Position numbers and translations under genes: made by a program. The notes beneath the pieces are model-generated. The model saw only the letters and a program-made list of their open reading frames with translations. It was not told where the DNA came from and ran no database searches. 25,169 bases of DNA from Candidatus Latescibacterota bacterium. GTDB lineage: Bacteria; Latescibacterota; UBA2968. Position 1 is the first letter of the stretch. Every line of letters starts with the position of its first letter. Below, piece after piece: positions 1-21,782 of the stretch. The DNA lies in the NCBI GenBank assembly GCA_038279365.1, contig JAYODI010000030.1, forward strand, positions 32,164 through 57,332, written 5' to 3'.

Positions 1-455
1 TCGGCAAGTTGGTTTCGAAACAAACGCTGACGAATCGTTTCGCCTACCTGTGCTAAGGCATATGGATTATCTGAGGTAATACGACTGAATCCCGATTCTG
101 GAATCTTCACCAATTCTGCACGACTGGTGGTGTGCGCATAAATGCTCGCCGTGCGATTTTGCCCCGTAAAAACACCCATCTCACCAACCAACTGACCCGG
201 TTTGTTCTCCCCAACAAACATCTCAGTGCCATCATCCATTGCAATAGCAACCTGCAACACACCCTCAATCACCAAGTATGTCGAATCGCTGTGATCGCCT
301 TGTTTAAAGAGCCTTTCTCCAGGTTCTAAACTGACCAAAGTCAAGTCTTTCGACAAATCTTGTAGAACAACCTCGTCAAGGTCTTTAAACAGATACGTCT
401 CTCGAATATGCGCGAGCAACTCCGTTCTCGACGGTTGTTCTTTCGCTTCTAACAT
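1..455 (-). CDS. Cyclic-nucleotide-binding (cNMP/CAP effector) domain protein, 5' part only; runs off the window edge
   Basis: Absent from the ORF track because it has no stop in the window. Manual translation from ATG 455 (GGGGA upstream) gives MLEAKEQPSRTELLAHIRETYLFKDLDEVVLQDL...LEPGERLFKQGDHSDSTYLVIEGVLQV...PGQLVGEMGVFTGQNRTASIYA...IRQRLFRNQLA. The LFxQGD, YxVxxG, GE and RTA elements are CNB hallmarks. Confidence 0.9.
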   Translation of the reverse strand, partial: MLEAKEQPSRTELLAHIRETYLFKDLDEVVLQDLSKDLTLVSLEPGERLFKQGDHSDSTYLVIEGVLQVAIAMDDGTEMFVGENKPGQLVGEMGVFTGQNRTASIYAHTTSRAELVKIPESGFSRITSDNPYALAQVGETIRQRLFRNQLA

Positions 456-6659: not shown

Positions 6660-7325
6660 CTAACCCACGATCTCTTGCCATTTTGCCTTGGCGCCCGATA
6701 GAAATGGAGAACCATGCGATACAAAAATGGCATCAAAATCGTAATCCAGCAGTTTGCGAGACGATTTGGCGGCTTCCTCTTTGTTTTCCATCGCAAAACC
6801 CGGCATGGGACTCAAACCTTTGGGCAACATGCCAACAGCGCTGAACAATTTCATCGGAAGTGCGAAATCCCCCTTCTGGTAATTGAAAATCGCATCTCCC
6901 GCAATCAGCGCACCGTCGCCACCGGGATGCAGCAATATCGTTTCTCCCAGCGACATGCCGGGCATTTCTATTGCCTTCAAACCACCCGACAGAGTCTCGC
7001 CATCATCAAAGAACGTATCGACACTCGTTTCGATTTTGGACATCAGTTTGCGATTGGCCTGGACCGGAATCTGATATCGGTCGCGATAATAATCGGTATG
7101 CCGCACGTGGTTGCCACAGGTAATGATGATGTGCGTGGGGGCACCCAGATTTTCGAGCGTTTTGAGATCTGATTCGGGTAAGCGGCATGGATCGACCAGA
7201 ATGAGGGCGTCTTCTGTTTTGACCACATGCATGGCGGCCTGCATGCTCATCGGGCCTCCCATGGGGACTTTGCCAACGGCTCTGTAGATGCCCGGAAGGC
7301 GTTCGGTAAGCGCTTCTGGTTTCAT
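6660..7325 (-). CDS. Metallo-beta-lactamase-fold protein, degenerate metal site (paralog 2)
   Basis: Start re-called to ATG 7325 (MKPEALTE...), which has a GGGAG RBS and removes the overlap with the upstream gene. Motifs: LILVDP, HIIITCGNHVRH, LIAGDA, FDAIFVSHG. Confidence 0.8.
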   Translation of the reverse strand: MKPEALTERLPGIYRAVGKVPMGGPMSMQAAMHVVKTEDALILVDPCRLPESDLKTLENLGAPTHIIITCGNHVRHTDYYRDRYQIPVQANRKLMSKIETSVDTFFDDGETLSGGLKAIEMPGMSLGETILLHPGGDGALIAGDAIFNYQKGDFALPMKLFSAVGMLPKGLSPMPGFAMENKEEAAKSSRKLLDYDFDAIFVSHGSPFLSGAKAKWQEIVG

Positions 7326-7392
7326 TTTATATATCTCCCATTGAGAATGTTGGGGACTCTTGCGGGATGTTTTCTGCCTTGAAGAAGGCCTG

Positions 7393-8049
7393 TCATAGCG
7401 ATTGAACGAGCTTGCGTACCTGCTCTTTTGCGCCAGATAAAATGGGGGCGCCATGGGATACGATGAGCGCATCAAAATCGTGGTCCAGGATTTTGCGGTA
7501 GGAATCAAAACCCCGTTTCCGAATGAACGCGCGCGGCATGGTGTTGAGCTCGGCGCGAAACCCGACCAGCTTCATGCCGGGAACAATGAAGTCTTCGGGT
7601 TGCAGGTTGAAAAAGGCATCACCAACGATGAGAACATTTCGGTCGCCCAGGTTATAGAGCAATGCCGTTTCGCCTCGAAAGGTGCCGAGCATGTCGATGG
7701 TTTGAAAGAGGCCGAGGAGCGTGTCTCCGGGTTGGAAGAAGAGATCTACGCCGACTTCGATTTTGGACATCAAATCGCGGTGGGCACAAATCTGTGCGCC
7801 ATACTGCTTGCGATAGAATGCGGCATCTCGGACGTGATTGGTACCACAAATGACCACATGCGTGGGCGTGCCGAGGGCCTCCATTTCTGCCAGGTTGGCC
7901 TGATAGAATGGATCGATTAAGATCACTGCGTCATCTGTTTTGATCAGATGCATGCTGCCCGGCACGCGGAAAGGGCCAAAAAACGGCACTCTTCCCTCGG
8001 CGCGATAGATGCCCGGCAGGCATTCCGACCATGTTTTTTCGTTGTCCAA
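7393..8049 (-). CDS. Metallo-beta-lactamase-fold protein, degenerate metal site (paralog 1)
   Basis: 218 aa with a TTG start (uncertain). Motifs VILIDP, HVVICGTNHVRD, LIVGDA and FDALIVSHG. Colinear with the downstream paralog (LPGIYRA, KTxDA, LMSKIE, LSGAK). Confidence 0.8.
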   Translation of the reverse strand: MDNEKTWSECLPGIYRAEGRVPFFGPFRVPGSMHLIKTDDAVILIDPFYQANLAEMEALGTPTHVVICGTNHVRDAAFYRKQYGAQICAHRDLMSKIEVGVDLFFQPGDTLLGLFQTIDMLGTFRGETALLYNLGDRNVLIVGDAFFNLQPEDFIVPGMKLVGFRAELNTMPRAFIRKRGFDSYRKILDHDFDALIVSHGAPILSGAKEQVRKLVQSL

Positions 8050-12676: not shown

Positions 12677-12910
12677 CTATTTGTCTTTTTGGTGAAACAC
12701 GGCCAAGCGTTTTTTCACGCCGTTGCTGATGTCTCCTGCCTTTTCCATCATTTGAGCCATCTGCATCACTTTTTGCATGGCTTCAGGTGGTGTCAACCGA
12801 CCCTTTTTTAAGGTGTAGACCCCATACAGATAGAGCGTAATAAAGTCGTTGAGCATCGACCCATCAAACAGGGGTTCTTCAATTTTTTGTGGTTCCTCTT
12901 GCTCTGACAT
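12677..12910 (-). CDS. Small hypothetical helical protein (77 aa)
   Basis: Strong GGGAGG RBS 4 nt before the ATG. It fills the gap between two long genes in the same orientation. Confidence 0.7.
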   Translation of the reverse strand: MSEQEEPQKIEEPLFDGSMLNDFITLYLYGVYTLKKGRLTPPEAMQKVMQMAQMMEKAGDISNGVKKRLAVFHQKDK

Positions 12911-12968: not shown

Positions 12969-15900
12969 TTACGGACGTGCCTTTTCTTCATCGGTGGGCT
13001 TGGTGTTGACATTTGAAACAAATCCGCCGTTGATCTGGATGCTGACATAAGGCGTTTTACGCGACGTTGATATTTGTGCCGTCACCAATTGAATACTTTC
13101 CTGTCCGGCTTTTTCCCAAATGCCATAACCCGAAAAGCTGACCGTGTCGTAGTTGCCTTCTTTGAGTGTTGATTGACGCGAGTTGGTGAAGCTCACCCAG
13201 GTCAGGCTGTTCAACTTGAACCTGCCATCCTGACTGTGGTTGGTGTAGACAAATGACGCATCTCGGTTTTCTGGGTCAGATGGAATGTCGAAGCTGTATG
13301 AAAAATGTTCACCCGTTGAGGCAACAACGTCTTCGGCCTCACCTTTTTTGACAAAATCGGTGGGCGCATCGTTGTGCATGGCTTGTAGCCACATAAAGGG
13401 ATCCAGTGTCGAGTCAGAGAGCACTTTGAAACCCGAACCGAGATTGGGAGATGGGAAGTAGAATTCGCCGGGATAAACCACACGAACCTCACCGTCAAAA
13501 CGGAAGACGGTTTCACCCTGTGGACCTTTTTCAAAACAGGCAGGGCCTCTAAAAAAGAACGACGATTTGGGTGTGCGTGGTTCAACGCGAATAAGTGCAA
13601 AAAACAAGTTTTGGCTAATCAAGCCGCGCTGCAAAACGTTGGCGAGTACTTTGCCCGTTTTGAGGTTGACCATGCCAACCGACAAATCGAACGGGTCATC
13701 AATAGAAAACACATTGTTGAGAAAATAGGTTTGTTGTGGAAAGCGCAAAAACTCGTTATGCCCATGGGGTCCTGGCAGCAATGGCATATTGGCTTCAGAA
13801 CCAGGCAATTTTTCACTGAGAGGATTGTCTTTGAGCGCATGCCCCAAAAACCCCCCCGGATTGAGTTTGGTGATGGCAATGGGAACAGAGTCGCCACAGC
13901 GCTGACCAAATTGCACCATAATACGCCCCAGCAAATGCGAGCGGCCTTTTCCCGTACCACCCAGTTCGGGCAGGTCGAGCGTAAAAAGATCACCAAAACT
14001 GGTATTGTGTGTGTAAATCGTATATTCTTGCAGCGTATTTTCAGGCAATTCGGGTAACAAGTCTGATTCTTCGAGCGGTTCGGGTGCCTTGGTGCTCAAA
14101 TGCAAATGAGGATGCAGGGTCGTACCACGTGCCGGAATATGAGCATACTGCTGTGTGGGACTGCAAAATGGCAATGGAAACCGAATCGGATCGTCGAGAC
14201 CCGGTACCATACCCAATGGCACAAAAGTGCTACCGTAAAATGAAAAATCCAGTTTGCCATCGTTGCGTTGCTCAAATTTGGCCCAGGCCGATCCATACAT
14301 GCCCGGAAACTGGATGGGCACATCGGGGAACTTGGGGTTGACACGAACAAGTGAGAAAAGTGCTGTGTTGAAAAAACGCACGGCCCAATCTAAGTTGGTG
14401 ACTTCGCCCGTTTCCAGGTTCAGATCACCAGATGAAATTATCTTGGGATCATCTTTGACCTGATTGTGCAGAACGGGCAATTTAAAAAATGTGGGGGCTG
14501 TCATAACGCCATCATCACCCACAAGGCCCGTTTCGCCACCATGATAGACCTCAAAGTGCGTGATCTTGTCTTTGGGTTCCGAAAACTTAAAACGCAAATA
14601 ACCATTCAAATGGCTATCGGTCATAGCCAAGCCCCCAAAGAGCAGATCTCCAGAAGAACCAAAGTCAGCGTCTATTTTGTTTTTGCAATTCACCGGGCGA
14701 ATGGCATCGCCAAAATAGCTGGCCTCTTTGCTCAGTGGCAAGATTTGCTCGCCCCCAGGCGGCAATTGGAGCATCAAAGATGGATCATCGGCCACGACAA
14801 CCTCGTTTGCCGGTTCTTCAGGCATTTCAGGCGGGCTAAGCGGTTCGGGCATTTGTTCAACCCTACGCGGAAGATCTTCCATGGCCAGCACAGGGCCTTC
14901 GGCCTGATGATAATCTGCAACCGCATCGGTCGCTGCAATGTGAGACACATCAATCAGTGGAAAACTGGCTTCATAAACTTCATTGAGACGCCTGAGCACA
15001 TCGTTGGCAATAAGCGCATGACCCGTGGCACCTGGATAATAGCCATTGAGCGAGTAAAAACCACCCAAGAAATCGGCAGTAAGTGTTTGGCCATGTTCAC
15101 GGATGCCTGATTCGGCCAAATGGTGGATAAACCCGTGAAGATCATAGACCAACGCACTGTGTGCATCGGCCTTTTCGGAAATGGCCCGATTGAGGGCTGA
15201 AACACATGTGTGAACAGTGTTGGCCATTTCACCTGAGAGAATCGATCCTTCGGGCAGTGTTGAGATCTTGCCAGACAGAAACTGGCAACCCATTTCCATA
15301 AGCCCATTAACCGTGATCCGATCGCCCTCTGCAAGGTCGTACGTATTTTGAATAATGGCTGGATCAACCTTGAGATTGAGAGCTGCCGATTCTATGCTTG
15401 AAAAATAGGCCGTGTCCATCGGATCGGGTACGGTCATAACCAGAACCTGAGCGCCTTGTTCGCGAAATGTCGTGATTAGTTTTTCATAACTTTCAGCAAA
15501 AGCTGCACCATCGGGCAGTGCATCACTATTCTGGCTAATAGCCGCTTCCAGTACTTCGTGAAATCCGAGGGCCAACAATACAAATGAAGGGTTGCGCTGC
15601 TGAGCATATTCAAATTGTGTGAGACACGCCCCCGTCCCATTGCGAAAACCATCAAGCCCCAAAATGAGGTTGGCAGATGTTTGTTTGACATCGTCGCGAT
15701 GAATAATTGGCAATTGGGGGCGTAAGTGGATGGCATCTGAAAGTGTAAAACCGGGTACAGACAAATTGCACAGCGCATCGGCCTCTACATTTTCCATAAT
15801 GGTGGTTTGAAAGTGTGCGGGCAAAACAACCGGCAACTCACCAAAACCAACAGGGCTACCAAAACCAGGCGGCTGTACCAAAGGTTGCTCAAACCGAGTT

Positions 15901-16346
15901 TTTATTTGCCGGGCCATCTGTGCGGGAAAGCTGTCTTTTTGAAATGCTTTATTGAGCCCAAAATCCACCAAGCCTGCCGCCAGACCCTCGCCCAACACAA
16001 CAAAGGTGCTGGCGTCTAATTTGCCGGGGTTGACATCTTGTGGCCGATCGGCAGACATTGGCACACTGCTGGTATCTTGTTGTGTGTCTTGTGTTTTGTT
16101 ATCCGATGCCTTTTTAAAAACTTTATCGACAACATTGCGCTGCAAACCATCACCGGTCTTGAAAACGCCTTTAATCGTATCACCCATTTGATTTTCTGTG
16201 ACTTTTGTGACGGAGTCTATGGCTGATGCAACTTTTTTCTGAGAGGAATCGATATCTTTAGACGACAAGATATTGATCATCTGTTTGACACCAAACATGG
16301 GCAATGCCATCGAAAAACTGACCACCGACTTTATAAATTTTCGCAT
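12969..16346 (-). CDS. Large multidomain protein: shared N-terminal module + inactive SGNH/GDSL-like domain + two tandem beta-rich domains
   Basis: AGGAG RBS. FVVLGEGLAAG matches block I (normally GDSLxAG), CNLSVPG block II, and GGFYSLNGYYPGATGHALIAN block V (normally DGxHP). A Pro/Glu-rich linker and an internal duplication follow. Confidence 0.8.
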   Translation of the reverse strand: MRKFIKSVVSFSMALPMFGVKQMINILSSKDIDSSQKKVASAIDSVTKVTENQMGDTIKGVFKTGDGLQRNVVDKVFKKASDNKTQDTQQDTSSVPMSADRPQDVNPGKLDASTFVVLGEGLAAGLVDFGLNKAFQKDSFPAQMARQIKTRFEQPLVQPPGFGSPVGFGELPVVLPAHFQTTIMENVEADALCNLSVPGFTLSDAIHLRPQLPIIHRDDVKQTSANLILGLDGFRNGTGACLTQFEYAQQRNPSFVLLALGFHEVLEAAISQNSDALPDGAAFAESYEKLITTFREQGAQVLVMTVPDPMDTAYFSSIESAALNLKVDPAIIQNTYDLAEGDRITVNGLMEMGCQFLSGKISTLPEGSILSGEMANTVHTCVSALNRAISEKADAHSALVYDLHGFIHHLAESGIREHGQTLTADFLGGFYSLNGYYPGATGHALIANDVLRRLNEVYEASFPLIDVSHIAATDAVADYHQAEGPVLAMEDLPRRVEQMPEPLSPPEMPEEPANEVVVADDPSLMLQLPPGGEQILPLSKEASYFGDAIRPVNCKNKIDADFGSSGDLLFGGLAMTDSHLNGYLRFKFSEPKDKITHFEVYHGGETGLVGDDGVMTAPTFFKLPVLHNQVKDDPKIISSGDLNLETGEVTNLDWAVRFFNTALFSLVRVNPKFPDVPIQFPGMYGSAWAKFEQRNDGKLDFSFYGSTFVPLGMVPGLDDPIRFPLPFCSPTQQYAHIPARGTTLHPHLHLSTKAPEPLEESDLLPELPENTLQEYTIYTHNTSFGDLFTLDLPELGGTGKGRSHLLGRIMVQFGQRCGDSVPIAITKLNPGGFLGHALKDNPLSEKLPGSEANMPLLPGPHGHNEFLRFPQQTYFLNNVFSIDDPFDLSVGMVNLKTGKVLANVLQRGLISQNLFFALIRVEPRTPKSSFFFRGPACFEKGPQGETVFRFDGEVRVVYPGEFYFPSPNLGSGFKVLSDSTLDPFMWLQAMHNDAPTDFVKKGEAEDVVASTGEHFSYSFDIPSDPENRDASFVYTNHSQDGRFKLNSLTWVSFTNSRQSTLKEGNYDTVSFSGYGIWEKAGQESIQLVTAQISTSRKTPYVSIQINGGFVSNVNTKPTDEEKARP
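13380..14745 (-). repeat. Two ~215-aa internal domain repeats in the 1125-aa protein (about 14095-14745 and 13380-14030)
   Basis: Aligned motifs: SYFGD/TSFGD; SHLNG/SHLLG; GDLNLETGEV/GMVNLKTGKV; LFSLVRVNPKFP/FFALIRVEPRTP; AKFEQRNDG/ACFEKGPQG; TLHPHL/TLDPFM. Confidence 0.8.
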
Positions 16347-16404
16347 GGAACACTCCTGTCACATCAAATGCATGTGATGAGTTGAAAATAAACTTCGAAA
16401 AACA

Positions 16405-17694
16405 TCAATGAGAAGTAGCAATCAAATTGAGCGGCTGGTTTTTAAACAACTGTTCCAATTGACCGTGTTGTTGAATGTCCTGGGCATAATGTGATACGTG
16501 TTGGGTCGGATTGAGAATGAACGCCTGCCAACGTCGTGCCAGAGCTTGACTGGCAAAACGAGGGTTATGCTTGGCAAAACCCTCAAAATAAAGATCTCCT
16601 CCAGTGACCTGTGTCCATACCACCAACGCAGCTGCAACCCCCTGAGCAAAAGCCGTGTTTTCCTCTAACCGATCGCCATGACGAGCGACAAATTGGGCCA
16701 CAATTTCAGGGTGACGCATGTTGACCAGCACAAGAGGCCACGCCAACCCAGAGATCACATTTTCGCGAGCCAGATCATGGGGGGGGCGCAAGGGCATCAG
16801 CGCACCTGCACGCCAAGATATACTTGAGCGTGGCACAAAATAGGCGCCACGACCGACACCATGCCAAAAAAAGGCGAGCCAATCGGGATTCATAATAGAT
16901 ATTTGGTGGTCAAAACGCAGGCGCAGTGCGGGCAAAAATGTTTGCGCAACAAGACCAAGGGCTTCAAACGCAATGCCAAAACACCCAGGCTGAGCATTTT
17001 GGGTGCACAAATCAGCAAAACGGCGCAATGCATCGTCTATTTGAGCCGTAGATGCATTGGGGGTGAGCGTGGCAAAACACCGTTTGGCCAACGACAAACC
17101 CATCCCAGCATGAAGCGGCACAACAGCGTGGCTGGGCAAAGGCTCAGTCGTAAGGAGTGCTTGTGGTTCTCCCATTTGCCAAGCGCGTTCGGCAACATAG
17201 TGACCCACACCTTCGGTGGCCCACACCGATATGTAAGGATCTAGACCTGCCGCTTTTTCAATGAATACGCCTAAGGGTGCATCTGATTGAGGCGGAATGT
17301 TCAGCACAGAATCAACATATCGAAAGGTGCCAAAACTTTCGAGTTTGTTGGTAAATTCCCGCCAAGCCAACCCATTGCCCATGCCTGGTAGATGTGTGCC
17401 AAATTTTTCGGTCAGACCACACATCAGATCGAACCCTGTTTTGATCACATGCCCCGACTGCAAGCCGTCTTGTGTCATAAGGGCCAACATCGGATCGATG
17501 GTTTCAGCGGTGAGACGATCGCCCGTTTTGAAGGTTTCGCGCATGAGCCGACTTAACTGCGCTTCAGCCCGTGCCAACATATCTTCAACCGGTTTGGACG
17601 TGGTGGGTTGCACCACGGCATCGGCAAGATGCTTCATGCCATACAGTGACATGGTAATCGGCAAGCGCAGCAGAGATTTTGCCAAATGGCGCAT
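16405..17694 (-). CDS. Hypothetical helical protein, paralog of 18748..20100 (possibly DUF1702-like)
   Basis: Starts immediately after the preceding stop (TAG-ATG). Motifs shared with its paralog: LAWREFTNKL, WATEGVGHY, LHAGMGL, FEALGL, FFWHGVGR, GLAWPLVLVNMRHP. Confidence 0.8.
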   Translation of the reverse strand: MRHLAKSLLRLPITMSLYGMKHLADAVVQPTTSKPVEDMLARAEAQLSRLMRETFKTGDRLTAETIDPMLALMTQDGLQSGHVIKTGFDLMCGLTEKFGTHLPGMGNGLAWREFTNKLESFGTFRYVDSVLNIPPQSDAPLGVFIEKAAGLDPYISVWATEGVGHYVAERAWQMGEPQALLTTEPLPSHAVVPLHAGMGLSLAKRCFATLTPNASTAQIDDALRRFADLCTQNAQPGCFGIAFEALGLVAQTFLPALRLRFDHQISIMNPDWLAFFWHGVGRGAYFVPRSSISWRAGALMPLRPPHDLARENVISGLAWPLVLVNMRHPEIVAQFVARHGDRLEENTAFAQGVAAALVVWTQVTGGDLYFEGFAKHNPRFASQALARRWQAFILNPTQHVSHYAQDIQQHGQLEQLFKNQPLNLIATSH

Positions 17695-17958
17695 CTATTT
17701 GGATCCTTCAGATTGGTTGTTTACACCGTTCCACGAAAAATGCCAAACAGCCCAGCGGATAATCTGACTGTCGGTAAATGGAACACCATGTTGGGCTTCG
17801 AGGCCTGTTCGAATATCATTTAAGATTTCACGATCTGTTTCAGAAAGTGCCACCATCAAACCCGTATCTTGCGAAACAGGCAATACGTCTGTCATGGGCA
17901 GGTCAATTTTTTGAATGCCACGCCCTGCTGGTAAGCGTTTTTTTGGGGCATCAGACAT
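17695..17958 (-). CDS. Small ParA partner protein, putative ribbon-helix-helix with an N-terminal basic GRG motif
   Basis: Start overlaps the parA stop (ATGTCTGA). N-terminus KKRLPAGRGI; C-terminal strand-helix-helix pattern LMVALSETDREILNDIR...TDSQIIRWAV. Confidence 0.7.
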   Translation of the reverse strand: MSDAPKKRLPAGRGIQKIDLPMTDVLPVSQDTGLMVALSETDREILNDIRTGLEAQHGVPFTDSQIIRWAVWHFSWNGVNNQSEGSK

Positions 17959-18700
17959 GAGACAAAATCTCCTGCGCTATATCGATAAAAGCACGGGCAC
18001 CCGTTGACCGCGGTGCATAGACAATAACAGGTTGACCGTTTGCCGAAGCCTCATCAATGGCCACATTAACAGCGACATATTTTGTGGTTTTTTTCCCAAA
18101 GTGTGTTTTAATTTCCGACAAAATCTCATTGGCCAAAGCGGTTCTGCGATACATCATCGGAATAACATGGGCAATATCGAGGTCTGGGCGACGAAATCGC
18201 TTTTGAACCGTTTCAATGGCCCACAACACTTGTGATGTACCTTCTAGGGCAAAATGCGCCACCTGAATAGGGAGAATGATATGATGTGCGGCAACCAGCG
18301 CATTGGTGGTAAACAATCCCAAACGAGGAGGACAATCAATAAACACAAATGCATATTGATCTTCAAGGGCATCCAGCGCAACCGAAAGTGCCATTTCTTT
18401 TCCGGGTGCACCACTCATTTCAGCATCGTCAAGGCGCAAATTTGACGGGGCCAAATCCAAATTTTTTATGGGGGTGGCCATAATCACATCTTGGAGTGCT
18501 ACCGTTCCAAGCAACACCTCGCGCATCGTTTGAGGCAATTCGTAGGGCTGAATGCCCAAATGGATACTGGCATTCCCTTGAGGATCGAGATCCACCAAAA
18601 GGGTTTTGTGGCCCTTTTTGGCAAATGCAGCAGCCAGGTTAACAGCGGCGGTGGTTTTTCCAACACCGCCTTTGTTGTTGGCAATGGCGTAAGTGATCAT
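17951..18700 (-). CDS. parA: ParA/Soj family ATPase
   Basis: Deviant Walker A NNKGGVGKTT, A' VDLDPQGN, Walker B FIDCPP, and EAxxxGQP. The ATG at 18700 (MITYAIAN) is preferred to the TTG at 18715. Confidence 0.95.
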   Translation of the reverse strand: MITYAIANNKGGVGKTTAAVNLAAAFAKKGHKTLLVDLDPQGNASIHLGIQPYELPQTMREVLLGTVALQDVIMATPIKNLDLAPSNLRLDDAEMSGAPGKEMALSVALDALEDQYAFVFIDCPPRLGLFTTNALVAAHHIILPIQVAHFALEGTSQVLWAIETVQKRFRRPDLDIAHVIPMMYRRTALANEILSEIKTHFGKKTTKYVAVNVAIDEASANGQPVIVYAPRSTGARAFIDIAQEILSHV

Positions 18701-18717
18701 AGAGAAATAACCCAATA

Positions 18718-18732
18718 GATTGTTTTACAATC
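18718..18732. promoter_or_regulatory. Palindrome GATTGT-N3-ACAATC, candidate operator upstream of parA
   Basis: Perfect 6-3-6 inverted repeat in the short gap between the 450-aa gene and parA. Confidence 0.4.
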
Positions 18733-18747
18733 CATTATCAGTGGTTT

Positions 18748-20100
18748 TTACTGATCGCTCAAAATTTGATCGATGAGCGCAGAAAGATCGCGATAACAAA
18801 AAATATCTCCCAGACGCTGATGTTCTTTGAGAATAGGATAATATTTCCGCAATGCAACTTCGCACGATTGCTGCACCAAACTGTTCCACTTGTCGGCAAA
18901 TGCGGCACCAAATCCATCGGGTGTTGTCATATACAGGTTGTCAATAAAAGGCGCATCAGGTGTGGTGTCTTGTCGCATCATCAATCCAGACATCACACCG
19001 TTTTGAAATCCGTCGCGCTCGTCTTCGTCTTCGACATTTAAATGATGGAGCAAATTGCCAAGAATATGTGGATGACGAACATTAACCATCGTCACACCCC
19101 ACGATAAACCTGCAAAAGCATTTCGCCTTGCCACACGCTCGGTGGCTTCGCGCCGGATCATTTCGATAGGGTGCCAGATCGCGCCATAACCGGGCAAAAA
19201 GTTGATGGGAGAAAAATAGATAGAACGACCCACACCGTGCCAAAAATATCCGTAGGCTTCTGGGTCCATTTCTTCTAACAAATGGCTAATAATCTGAACC
19301 ATTTCATCGGGCCGCGTGTCTCCATAAAATGCCCCACTGCGCGAGATCAGCCCCAAAGATTCGATAGCCGCGCCCTCATATCCGGGTTTTGAATTTTCTT
19401 TGCACAGCAAAATAATTTGTTTGAGCGCCTGGCGAATATCAGAATGTGAACTCAAGTGGTTAATGCCCCGCAAAAAATGCTGGGCAATGGCCATGCCCAC
19501 CCCCGCGTGAAGCATTGTCAAACTGCCATCCCTCACACCTTCAGTCTCAGTGAGCGCATTTTGCGGCACCATGTTGCGCGTCCAAAACGTATCGCCATAA
19601 TAATGTCCCAATCCTTCAACAGCCCACAACGATGGATATTCATCAAGTGCATAGGCACGTTCGACAAGTTCCGACAATGGCGGGTAGGGGGGTGCATCAG
19701 GCAGGTTGAGCGTTTTGGGTACTTGATAGACCAAATTAAACACCGTTAATTTGTTGCGCAATTCCTGCCAAGCCAAACGCCCATCTTTACTTGGCCCAAG
19801 GCTTTTGACCATTTCCAAAGACCAGGCCATAATTTCCGAAGTTGTTTTGGCGGTGCGACGTGGGTCGAGCATGTTCAACATCATATCGGTCACTTCTCGC
19901 TGCAAATCATCACCCACTTGAAACATGCTTTGCATCATATCACCCAGTTGTGACCCCGTTGCCAGTGTGGCGGCATCAAAGGCTTCGGTTGCCGTTTGGG
20001 TTGGCTGTGTCGGATGGGTAACAAGATTGATGATCTGTTTGGCACCAAACAGGGGCACCGCCCAAGCCAGACTTAAAGTGGATTTGGTGAATTCGCGCAT
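18748..20100 (-). CDS. Hypothetical helical protein with shared N-terminal module (possibly DUF1702-like)
   Basis: GGGAGG RBS. Recurrent Gly-centred helices WAVEGLGHY, LHAGVGMA, IESLGL, FWHGVGR and FAGLSWG. Paralog of 16405..17694. Confidence 0.8.
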   Translation of the reverse strand: MREFTKSTLSLAWAVPLFGAKQIINLVTHPTQPTQTATEAFDAATLATGSQLGDMMQSMFQVGDDLQREVTDMMLNMLDPRRTAKTTSEIMAWSLEMVKSLGPSKDGRLAWQELRNKLTVFNLVYQVPKTLNLPDAPPYPPLSELVERAYALDEYPSLWAVEGLGHYYGDTFWTRNMVPQNALTETEGVRDGSLTMLHAGVGMAIAQHFLRGINHLSSHSDIRQALKQIILLCKENSKPGYEGAAIESLGLISRSGAFYGDTRPDEMVQIISHLLEEMDPEAYGYFWHGVGRSIYFSPINFLPGYGAIWHPIEMIRREATERVARRNAFAGLSWGVTMVNVRHPHILGNLLHHLNVEDEDERDGFQNGVMSGLMMRQDTTPDAPFIDNLYMTTPDGFGAAFADKWNSLVQQSCEVALRKYYPILKEHQRLGDIFCYRDLSALIDQILSDQ

Positions 20101-20159
20101 CTATACACCTCCCGTGTAGGGGCGGATGGTTGACAGCTAAAAACTATCAAAAAAGCGAG

Positions 20160-21782
20160 TTATTTCTTGTTATTCTTTGAGCGCATGATAATCCAGAGCA
20201 AAACACTTCCAATCATCGCAAAAACGACGGCGCCTATTTGTTCAAGCCACACCCTAGCCATGCCCGATTGCACCAGGTGATAAACCAGAAGCACAACAGC
20301 AACAAGCAAAATCAAAAGCGAAATGGCCACAGATGATGTGTTGCGCGTTTGGCGATGTTCGGTTGCTTCTTGAATGCGAAAACGCAGTGTTAAATCGCTG
20401 TCTGCGGCTTGGGTAAGCAAAGCATCAAGTTTTTGGGGCAACTCCGAAAAAGATCCTGCGTATTTATTCAAAGCATCAGACCACGATTCTGTGGCAAATG
20501 CGTCCTGAAATTGATCGTTTCTGAGTTGCTCTTGATAAATGATGAGTGCATCGTTAAATGGATCTGCATCAGGTGCAAGTTGGTGTGCTGAAGCACCTAC
20601 CCAAAATAAACCACAGAAAAAATTGAGCAATTCTTTACGCGGTCGATAACCCTGTTCGGTGACCAAACGCCAATGCACAAAAATATGTTCGAGCAAACCA
20701 TCCTGAACACCCAGGTTGCCCCACCCGCCATCGCGAAAAGGGACCACTTGGCGAAACAGATGACGCAGTGTTTTTTCGTCGCAAACCGATGATTTGGCAT
20801 CCATTTCGCGCAGCAAACTTCGACAGGCTTGCTCGGGGTCGTGTTGTGCTGTAGCCGTGAGATAAGACCAAATATTTTCTCGTGTGTTGCTGCTGAGTTT
20901 TAAAAAAGGGCCACTTAGAAACACAACCGATTCATTGGGCAAACCCACAACATAGCGAAGGTGAGCGGCCGTTGTATAAACGCGCCCGTGAAACACTTGC
21001 TGTAGCCAACCCGAACAAAACGAACGGGCCAGCGTGAGGCGTTTTTCACCTGAGTCTGATTGTTTGTTTTGGTCTAAACAACGATCAAACCCTTCAAGGG
21101 TTAACACTTTGTCCCCACATAACATCGGGTAAACAGTGGGAACGCGACACCACTCGGATGTTTGCAGATCTTCTTTGGCAACAAGCAAATTTTCTCTTTC
21201 GCTCACAAAATCCATTTGAAACGTGAGCATGGCTTTAAAGTGCGCCACAACATCGGCAAAGGTTTCCTGCGCAAAACCCAATGCCATAAAAACACGTTCC
21301 AAACTTTCGAGATGACGCCAAACCTCATCGAGCCGATTGTGAACATCGGGGTGCTGGATTTTGACAACCACATCTGCCCCACCATGCATATGCGCATGGT
21401 GCAGTTGGTAGAGTGTATAGACTTGAAAAGGCTCGGGCTCAAAAGTCTCGTAGACTTCAAGAAGTGGACGACCCATTTGTGCCTGAAAAAAAACACCCAG
21501 ATCTTCAAATGATGTGGATCGGGCAACATCGGTGATGTCACCCAATACCAAGCAGCTTGAAATGGGAAACAAATCGGCACGACAAGCCAAATATTGACCA
21601 AAAAGAGCAAAACCCTGACCCAGTTTCTCGAGTGTGTTGCAACATGCCAGATAGGCCGAAGTGTCCATGGCAGACGGGGGTGTAGCCATGCATTTGGACA
21701 TCAGCGCATTCAGCATTTGCGTGATTTCTCGATCACGCAAATCAGATGTTTTTTGTAAAGGTTGCAAGACTGTGTTTGGCAT
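20160..21782 (-). CDS. UbiB/ABC1 (AarF) family pseudokinase with two C-terminal TM helices
   Basis: Colinear with the upstream kinase (LEKLGQGFALFGQYLACRADLFP, VVVKIQHP, MDFVSE, VPTVY, VLTLE) but lacks catalytic motifs. The ATG at 21782 has an AGGA RBS; the ORF track uses a TTG at 21797. Confidence 0.8.
   Translation of the reverse strand: MPNTVLQPLQKTSDLRDREITQMLNALMSKCMATPPSAMDTSAYLACCNTLEKLGQGFALFGQYLACRADLFPISSCLVLGDITDVARSTSFEDLGVFFQAQMGRPLLEVYETFEPEPFQVYTLYQLHHAHMHGGADVVVKIQHPDVHNRLDEVWRHLESLERVFMALGFAQETFADVVAHFKAMLTFQMDFVSERENLLVAKEDLQTSEWCRVPTVYPMLCGDKVLTLEGFDRCLDQNKQSDSGEKRLTLARSFCSGWLQQVFHGRVYTTAAHLRYVVGLPNESVVFLSGPFLKLSSNTRENIWSYLTATAQHDPEQACRSLLREMDAKSSVCDEKTLRHLFRQVVPFRDGGWGNLGVQDGLLEHIFVHWRLVTEQGYRPRKELLNFFCGLFWVGASAHQLAPDADPFNDALIIYQEQLRNDQFQDAFATESWSDALNKYAGSFSELPQKLDALLTQAADSDLTLRFRIQEATEHRQTRNTSSVAISLLILLVAVVLLVYHLVQSGMARVWLEQIGAVVFAMIGSVLLWIIMRSKNNKK

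Follow-up and report, generated by a model that had tools for sequence, protein, structure and literature searches.

Spatial organisation in bacterial cells is mainly the work of ATPases of the ParA/MinD family, and every newly assigned cargo has broadened the known roles of these enzymes. Among their described partners, ParG (TP228) and omega (pSM19035) are small proteins with a flexible basic tail and a ribbon–helix–helix (RHH) dimer, the usual type Ib design being an RHH protein whose N-terminal tail is activating, and BcsR is the very small partner of BcsQ in cellulose synthase operons. Here, a gene pair encoding a ParA-family ATPase (249 aa; positions 17951–18700, minus strand) and an 87-aa partner protein (17695–17958, minus strand) is described in a 25,169-nucleotide stretch of DNA from Candidatus Latescibacterota bacterium (hereafter the window), which forms the last 25 kb of a 57-kb contig in a metagenome-assembled genome of 6.0 Mb. 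The pair, seen in a few marine bacteria, is embedded in a gene cluster that is lipid-related and uncharacterised. It may be read, at chances that we consider about even, as an accessory two-protein module of the ParA/MinD type dedicated to its own gene cluster, in which the ATPase would be derived from Soj and the 87-aa protein would be its private partner; it would probably act on the proteins of the cluster and not on DNA. Rules of the ParA/MinD family are given in passages of PMC10241942, according to which a partner contacts its ATPase via a charged N-terminus and the cargo via its remaining part, with the ATPase genes placed close to those of the cargo.

The ATPase has the sequence characters of the ParA/MinD (deviant Walker A) family. 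It belongs to a small, apparently Soj-derived subfamily and matched AAA_31 with 176.8 bits (cut-off 27) and CbiA with 79.9 bits. Its closest solved structures were Soj-type ParAs, namely, M. xanthus ParA (8ray_B, E-value = 3.5 × 10−47), H. pylori Soj and T. thermophilus Soj (E-values to 5 × 10−39, near full length), with MinD (about 10−19) and McdA (4 × 10−11, residues 2–167 only) far behind. The start codon is the ATG also used by the orthologs; a TTG five codons upstream is possible, without ortholog support. About ten close relatives were found in a database of 5.8 billion clusters (58–98% identity, 249–251 aa), after which identity fell sharply to 48% or less, the matches being ordinary ParAs. 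Placement of the ParA in a phylogeny had been proposed in an earlier interpretation made from the letters of this DNA (the sequence-only reading); in the resulting tree of 70 ParAs (quick search, LG+G4), 14 subfamily rows were split from the 56 others by a branch with SH-aLRT 100, and their nearest kin were chromosomal-type ParAs. These relationships indicate that the ParA of the window belongs to a small, well-separated offshoot of the chromosomal Soj-type ParAs. Residues were compared in 20 aligned sequences, comprising 13 subfamily members and 7 generic ParAs. In the deviant Walker A motif (residues 8–17, NNKGGVGKTT; 18650–18679, minus strand), the signature lysine K10 and the Walker A lysine K15 were invariant in the alignment, as were D37, D39 and D122 (20 of 20 sequences each); with Walker A, A′ and B intact, the protein still looks able to bind ATP and to form the sandwich dimer.

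Two other surfaces of the ATPase were found to be altered. Passages of PMC6393308 give the non-specific DNA patch of H. pylori Soj (HpSoj) as K199, K227, K230 and K247, with loss of DNA binding in the quadruple mutant, and the consensus of the Soj DNA loop as M/V-I-P-K/R-S/N, with Arg189 of BsSoj required for nucleoid binding. When these positions were mapped via the HMMER alignment from the 8ray_B search and the subfamily alignment, the window ParA was found to carry N, V, A and R at the K199, K227, K230 and K247 positions, respectively, so that one of the four is basic. The position equivalent to K227/R189 was V or Q in all 13 subfamily members and R in all 7 generic ParAs, and at the K230 equivalent the basic residue was lost, with A in its place, in 9 of the 13. 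The segment concerned, V211-N-V-A214 (18059–18070, minus strand), is aligned with the non-specific DNA-binding loop/helix at the places of HpSoj K227 and K230. The sequence-only reading had noted by eye that VAVNV stands where Soj has the DNA-binding Arg loop, which proved correct: VAVNV is aligned with V-P-R-N-V of 8ray_B and with I-[PGKS]-R-[NTS]-[VI] in the 7 generic ParAs, and the loss is common to the whole subfamily alignment. The window ParA thus appears to lack Soj's basic patch for binding DNA. The second altered surface is the loop after Walker B (residues 124–132, PPRLGLFTT; 18305–18331, minus strand), where all 13 subfamily members have PPRLG[LI]F.. and all 7 generic ParAs have PP[SA]LG[LM][LI]T. 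instead. With the numbering matched through the 8ray_B alignment, this loop would be the counterpart of the loop at the ParB-peptide pocket in M. xanthus ParA, in which, according to a passage of PMC12462528, residues L150, L152 and L155 contact the ParB peptide. Taken together, the two changed surfaces would fit a ParA that is isolated from the resident ParB and whose canonical DNA surface is no longer used.

Chromosomal Soj proteins (8ray, 6iub and 1wcv) are the best sequence matches of the window ParA and have its deviant Walker A, A′ and B motifs, and the motif of its putative partner is spaced like the N-terminal motif of ParB, whereas the window ParA differs from them in the lost Arg of PRNV, the altered pocket loop and the score against NCBIfam ParA_partition (NF041546; 104.7 bits, under the cut-off of 180). 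The locus also differs from chromosomal Soj ParABS loci: neither ParB nor parS lies beside the window ParA, and the downstream gene encodes an 87-aa protein without a ParB domain. Another contig of the same genome encodes a 254-aa Soj (42% identical to the window ParA, with the Arg kept), directly followed by a 294-aa ParB; since the genome has its own Soj–ParB pair elsewhere, the window ParA is an extra copy. Further ParA-like genes were observed in this genome at G000:C85:13112-13858 (35% identical; the match crosses an in-frame TAG) and G000:C48:12408-13121 (26%), and counterparts of these genes are present in genomes of the same genus.

The 87-aa protein belongs to no named family, with no match in Pfam or NCBIfam. 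HMMER over 1.84 billion representatives returned 12 proteins at E ≤ 0.001, of which nine were small (78–102 aa); the three long ones were partial matches only and were disregarded. The ORF was conserved in four further lineages, and this conservation, together with its dN/dS values, indicates that it is a real gene. In the family alignment (13 sequences), a basic N-terminus is joined to a conserved block by an acidic linker of variable sequence. Its N-terminus is MSDAPKKRLPAGRGIQKI, and the beginning MSDAPKKRLPAGRGI given by the sequence-only reading was correct. The net charge of residues 1–22 ranged from 0 to +7 and was positive in 12 of the 13 sequences, while that of the remainder was negative (−2 to −6) in 11 of the 13, including the window protein (−5); an architecture of this kind fits the family rule given above. 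The basic peptide (residues 6–20, KKRLPAGRGIQKIDL; 17899–17943, minus strand) contains a G-R-G-I-x-x-I motif, in which L9 was invariant and G14, I15 and I18 were conserved in at least 90% of the family. In the passages of PMC12462528 that describe the ParA-binding motif of M. xanthus ParB, the motif comprises L11, R13, L15, L18 and I19, about half of ParBs have Lys as its central residue, and this residue is no arginine finger; the ParG tail is also mentioned there. The partner sequence L9-P-x-G-R13-G-I15-x-x-I18 is spaced like this motif, with its first hydrophobic residue two positions off and an acidic residue at position 19. Position 13 was R or K in 9 of the 13 sequences (G, S, Q and Q in the other four), which fits the Lys of about half of ParBs but is weaker than the central Arg of the ParB-like activating peptide proposed in the sequence-only reading; the basic N-terminus and the motif spacing agree with that proposal.

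The pair is inserted between the genes of two paralogous proteins on the same strand. Paralog A (450 aa; 18748–20100, minus strand; AlphaFold2 (AF2) pTM 0.85), which is all-helical and has an N-terminal leader module of about 100 aa, lies upstream, and paralog B (429 aa; 16405–17694, minus strand) adjoins the stop codon of the partner gene; they were 29% identical (E-value = 8 × 10−58). The ParA stop and the partner start overlap by 8 nt, ATGTCTGA (17951–17958, minus strand), an arrangement consistent with translational coupling, with the partner ATG inside the ParA stop region (CTCATGTCTGATG), and the partner TAG directly abuts the ATG of paralog B (TAG-ATG). The arrangement described in the sequence-only reading was therefore borne out by the coordinates and by the identity of the paralogs. 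In three metagenome loci the partner gene likewise follows directly after ParA: the ATGTCTGA overlap was identical in L011 and L012, whereas L065 had a 14-nt overlap and a TGATG junction as the equivalent of TAG-ATG, so that coupling of the partner into paralog B was kept in all four lineages. Relative to L011, dN/dS was 0.064 for ParA and 0.31 for the partner (dS about 0.5), and relative to L012 it was 0.059 and 0.27, respectively; the partner values were 0.27–0.31 against three of the four further lineages, and dS was saturated relative to L065, where the ParA was 63% identical. Both genes are under purifying selection.

A mechanism may be proposed for a module of this kind. The basic peptide of the partner (L9, R13, I15 and I18) would dock in the re-shaped pocket beside Walker B and trigger ATP hydrolysis, while the dimer-forming, Trp-rich body of the partner would grip something made by the cluster, with paralog B, which is translated in tandem, as the most likely target; the ATPase would then serve as an ATP-timed switch or scaffold for assembly of the cluster. 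A complex prediction with two ParA copies, the partner and ATP/Mg gave a score of 0.13 against a mark of 0.32, which is non-informative either way.

The body of the partner bears on the question of whether the pair acts on DNA. AF2 and the alignment delimit a strand-like segment and two helices ending in I-R-W-A-V-W-H-x-x-W (residues 34–76; 17731–17859, minus strand); the conserved block opens with a short segment of alternating hydrophobic residues, after which come the two helices, with R68, W69 and A70 invariant in the family. In the AF2 monomer, the helices spanned residues 40–57 and 63–73 (pLDDT 87–91 over 41–70; mean pLDDT 69.7), the N-terminus was unstructured, and no strand or ribbon was formed; Foldseek of this two-helix model against PDB gave nothing at E ≤ 0.001. 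The RHH-like core proposed in the sequence-only reading drew support from the sequence pattern and from sub-threshold matches. RHH_1 reached 18.9 bits in one of the 13 members (P0128; cut-off 20.5) and 11.9 bits in a second one, the highest-ranking match to a PDB profile (5ytp_A, E-value = 0.14) spanned the strand and both helices, and a language-model search ranked an RHH_1 cluster second (score 0.92, with 157 shared features, under the mark of 170); all these matches were sub-threshold, the monomer model had no ribbon, and hhalign of the partner family with a four-sequence RHH_1 profile from related genomes covered 13 columns with 0.9% probability. No paper for PDB 5ytp (TTHA0139) was found in a literature search. 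As to the claim that the partner is a hybrid, only the combination of a ParB-style motif with a Soj-type ParA stands, since an RHH core with a tail is already the type Ib norm.

Because of these RHH-like signals, the alternative of a DNA regulator stays alive. According to it, the pair would be a type Ib-like DNA module, in which a true RHH partner on an operator- or centromere-like site would control downstream transcription or segregate a chromosomal region. It would share with ParF/ParG and delta/omega a small ParA without an N-terminal DNA-binding domain followed by a small basic-tailed partner with a possibly RHH-like (beta-alpha-alpha-like) core, and the Arg equivalent to K247 is retained in the window ParA. 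However, the direct repeats in 16300–20300 formed 17 families of only two copies each, with no family of at least three copies and no iterated centromere or operator repeats; the palindromes in the 47-bp spacer were not conserved in L011, L012 and L065, a 6-3-6 palindrome being missing from L011. The presumed DNA-facing positions of the ribbon were variable and often acidic or apolar (M/A, L/E, H/E, H/D and T/D), the body of the partner was acidic, and the basic residue of PRNV was lost throughout the subfamily, to which the low hhalign probability should be added. Type Ib systems differ further in that the pair is not on a plasmid, its flanks being chromosomal and metabolic, and in that no ParF or delta chain reached E = 10−10 in the PDB search, in which Soj-type chains did. 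A DNA module of this type is considered unlikely.

The reading of the pair as a dedicated module acting on proteins should also be compared with cargo-positioning systems. In a McdAB-type arrangement, ParA-ATP would lie on the nucleoid via a non-canonical surface, and the partner would tether and space a body built by the cluster. The gene-neighbourhood logic and the polarity of the adaptor resemble those of the known cargo systems as given in passages of PMC10241942: as in McdA/McdB and other cargo-dedicated systems, the ATPase lies among putative cargo genes and is accessory, not being present in every cargo-bearing lineage, and the partner has a charged N-terminus and conserved Trp residues towards the C-terminus. 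The conserved tryptophans near the C-terminus of the partner (W69, W72 and W76) bring to mind McdB, which according to PMC11321042 depends on an invariant Trp to bind carboxysomes, and the subfamily has gained new basic residues in its KRFRR and RRT segments. Against this arrangement, only one of the four patch positions is basic, and loss of DNA binding is the outcome described for the HpSoj quadruple mutant in the cited part of PMC6393308; the ParA is far nearer to Soj (E-value of 10−47) than to McdA (4 × 10−11) and is not a McdA homolog at the family level; the partner is short and folded, not long and disordered or coiled-coil; and the cluster in the window contains no microcompartment genes and no recognisable shell- or body-forming protein. 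With three of the four canonical patch residues non-basic, the ParA is probably not riding the nucleoid in the usual way, and McdAB-type positioning appears distinctly unlikely; a switch or scaffold is favoured over a nucleoid gradient because the canonical DNA patch is largely gone.

The likeness to BcsQ/BcsR consists of a ParA/MinD ATPase with a tiny partner in a biosynthetic operon, and Pfam CBP_BcsQ matched residues 6–243 with 40.1 bits (cut-off 21.3), whereas cellulose_yhjQ (TIGR03371) reached 63.7 bits against a cut-off of 157.85, the window holds no bcs genes, and the ParA is much nearer to Soj. By analogy, the pair would resemble cargo-dedicated ParA/MinD pairs in its working, Soj in its descent and type Ib systems in its architecture, while departing from the latter in repeats and replicon.

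The distribution of the pair was assessed against that of the paralog family, a large family with 667 protein members (E ≤ 0.001) and, in metagenomes, 399 confirmed stretches; 80 metagenome loci were fetched and searched for the pair by tblastn (E ≤ 0.1) and profile hidden Markov models (E ≤ 1). Among them, the ParA was found only in L011, L012, L065 and at the contig end of L017, the sequence of which equals that of L065, and the partner was found only in L011, L012 and L065, as well as at the contig end of genome G002. Wherever it was seen, including lineages with ParAs only 63% identical, the pair was located at the A–B junction and coupled into B. In the paralog-A tree, the pair-bearing rows fell into two of the four subclades of one 17-row group (support 87); paralog A was only about 52% identical between these two, with the pair in the same position, and in the other two subclades A was directly followed by B, or a DinB_2 gene and a small ORF lay between them. 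The simplest history is one gain with several losses, or a gain with transfer between related clusters; the tree cannot separate gain from loss. In a sister subclade, a 206-aa DinB_2-family gene (49.9 bits) was observed at L020 11557–12177, L022 11516–12136 and L015 2647–3267; its presence in place of the ParA pair marks the A–B junction as a variable slot. Among 168 genomes of the phylum, the cluster was present in three, all of the genus of the window, and the partner in two.

Several of these observations weigh against a module dedicated to the cluster. The pair was absent from all 62 informative metagenome loci (those with a complete paralog A and at least 800 bp after it) outside the pair-bearing groups; in all, 62 loci lacked the pair, 16 rows were not judgeable, and 5 rows, including the window, had it. 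To the question raised by the sequence-only reading, whether homologous clusters keep the pair, the answer is mostly negative (4 of 80 loci), and since most lineages have the cluster without the pair, the pair is dispensable and no core part of the cluster, which bears on the suggestion of the sequence-only reading that it may position the product of the cluster. In the same-genus genome G001 (90% complete), A and B were 80 bp apart and no orthologous ParA was found, and across lineages the junction contained DinB_2 and a small ORF, a 423-aa ORF, or nothing. A partner body resembling RHH would as a rule point to DNA binding, and in the two most divergent members of the partner family the body is basic (+5).

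The absence from most homologous clusters and from the same-genus genome, the differing inserts at the junction and the patchy occurrence of the whole cluster, confined to one genus in the phylum survey, would also be expected if the pair had been inserted incidentally into a permissive junction and persisted without a role in the cluster. This is opposed by the purifying selection on both genes, by the coupling into paralog B retained across saturated dS and by the same position in two subclades with divergent paralog A. Furthermore, the GC content of the pair (0.46–0.48) is the same as that of its neighbours, with no compositional anomaly, and neither mobile-element genes nor relatives on mobile elements were found. 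A Pfam scan of the 18 large ORFs of the window revealed no ParB, replication or mobility domain, in agreement with the sequence-only reading. The partner had no match among 72,556 plasmids or 2.9 million viral contigs, and among phages gave just two rows at E = 0.4; the best plasmid and phage rows of the ParA were at most 43% identical and of chromosomal type, several of them under features annotated as Soj or ParA/ParB. A plasmid, phage or viral origin was therefore rejected, and with it the earlier suggestion of a captured plasmid partition cassette. Of the two signs by which the sequence-only reading would have recognised an incidental insertion, absence from most homologous clusters was seen, while relatives on plasmids or prophages were not. 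Incidental insertion is held to be highly improbable, and the evidence says that the pair is not a mere passenger.

The cluster around the pair extends from about 25118 down to about 3628, with all large genes on the minus strand and short spacers. It begins with a 553-aa epimerase-like/acyltransferase fusion, two ABC1/UbiB-type kinases and paralog A, continues through ParA, the partner and paralog B to an 1125-aa and a 417-aa protein, and ends with a halogenase-like flavoprotein, an RPE65-type oxygenase, metallo-beta-lactamase-fold protein(s) (overlapping ORF calls at 7393–8049 and 6660–7508, each matching), an aldehyde dehydrogenase and a FadL-like outer-membrane protein. The neighbourhood common across the 80 loci included the acyltransferase, two ABC1 kinases, the paralogs, the 1125-aa and 417-aa proteins, the flavoprotein, RPE65 and FadL. 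The whole cluster (3628–25118), including the epimerase-like/PlsC fusion and the aldehyde dehydrogenase, recurs in metagenomes under source names that include Acidobacteria, Tectomicrobia and Zixibacteria, and several of its core proteins have no Pfam family. In the 20 kb next to the low-coordinate end of the window, on the downstream side of the cluster, ordinary chromosomal genes were found (transporter, sulfatase, pectinesterase, HipA and patatin), and the cNMP-binding ORF at window positions 3–455 runs on (L113 18314–19963) as part of a longer protein that has a P-loop of the NTE type and a patatin phospholipase domain.

The leader module (about 75–100 aa, MRxFxKSxLS...FGxxQ...GDxLQR) stands at the head of both paralogs and also of the 1125-aa protein, which is unrelated to them (window 12969–20100), and tblastn also revealed it as a stand-alone ORF of about 100 aa beside ABC1 kinases in L014, L019, L023, L033–L035, L037 and others; AF2 predicted long helices for it with low confidence (pLDDT 33–66). 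For the fold of paralog A, Foldseek and VIA-align gave no usable match (best Z 7.0, N-terminal helices only). DUF1702, a language-model lead for paralog A (11–13% of cluster members carry DUF1702), was rejected, as HMMER detected it in 0 of 27 family members. A 77-aa ORF at 12677–12910 (minus strand), in the 340 bp that separate the 1125-aa gene from the 417-aa gene, had no Pfam match; in L016, L020 and L022, look-alikes sharing a stretch recognised by eye (...YLYG.Y.LKGGR..P.EA...) lie immediately upstream of paralog B, and the ORF is probably a genuine small gene belonging to the cluster.

A bolder form of the dedicated-module reading, which is considered very unlikely, is that the cluster of ABC1 kinases, acyltransferase and leader-module proteins builds a discrete lipid- or membrane-associated protein body that, in this marine clade, has gained its own ParA organiser, in which a ParB-style peptide would be carried on an RHH-derived scaffold that has given up DNA binding and the ATPase would have shed its nucleoid patch. 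If the pair were merely a regulator or a passenger, its interest would be modest. As a dedicated module, it would be a natural case of the re-tooling of a chromosomal ParA, with the pocket and the DNA patch changed and a ParB-like peptide kept by the partner, and the partner would be a very small adaptor, directly testable as a peptide "tag". The pair also points to an uncharacterised cluster of many soil and marine phyla, the products of which may form an organised assembly. If the lipid-body reading were true, this would be the first ParA/MinD system dedicated to a lipid-related cargo, as distinct from DNA or a microcompartment, and it would provide a handle on the product of the cluster.

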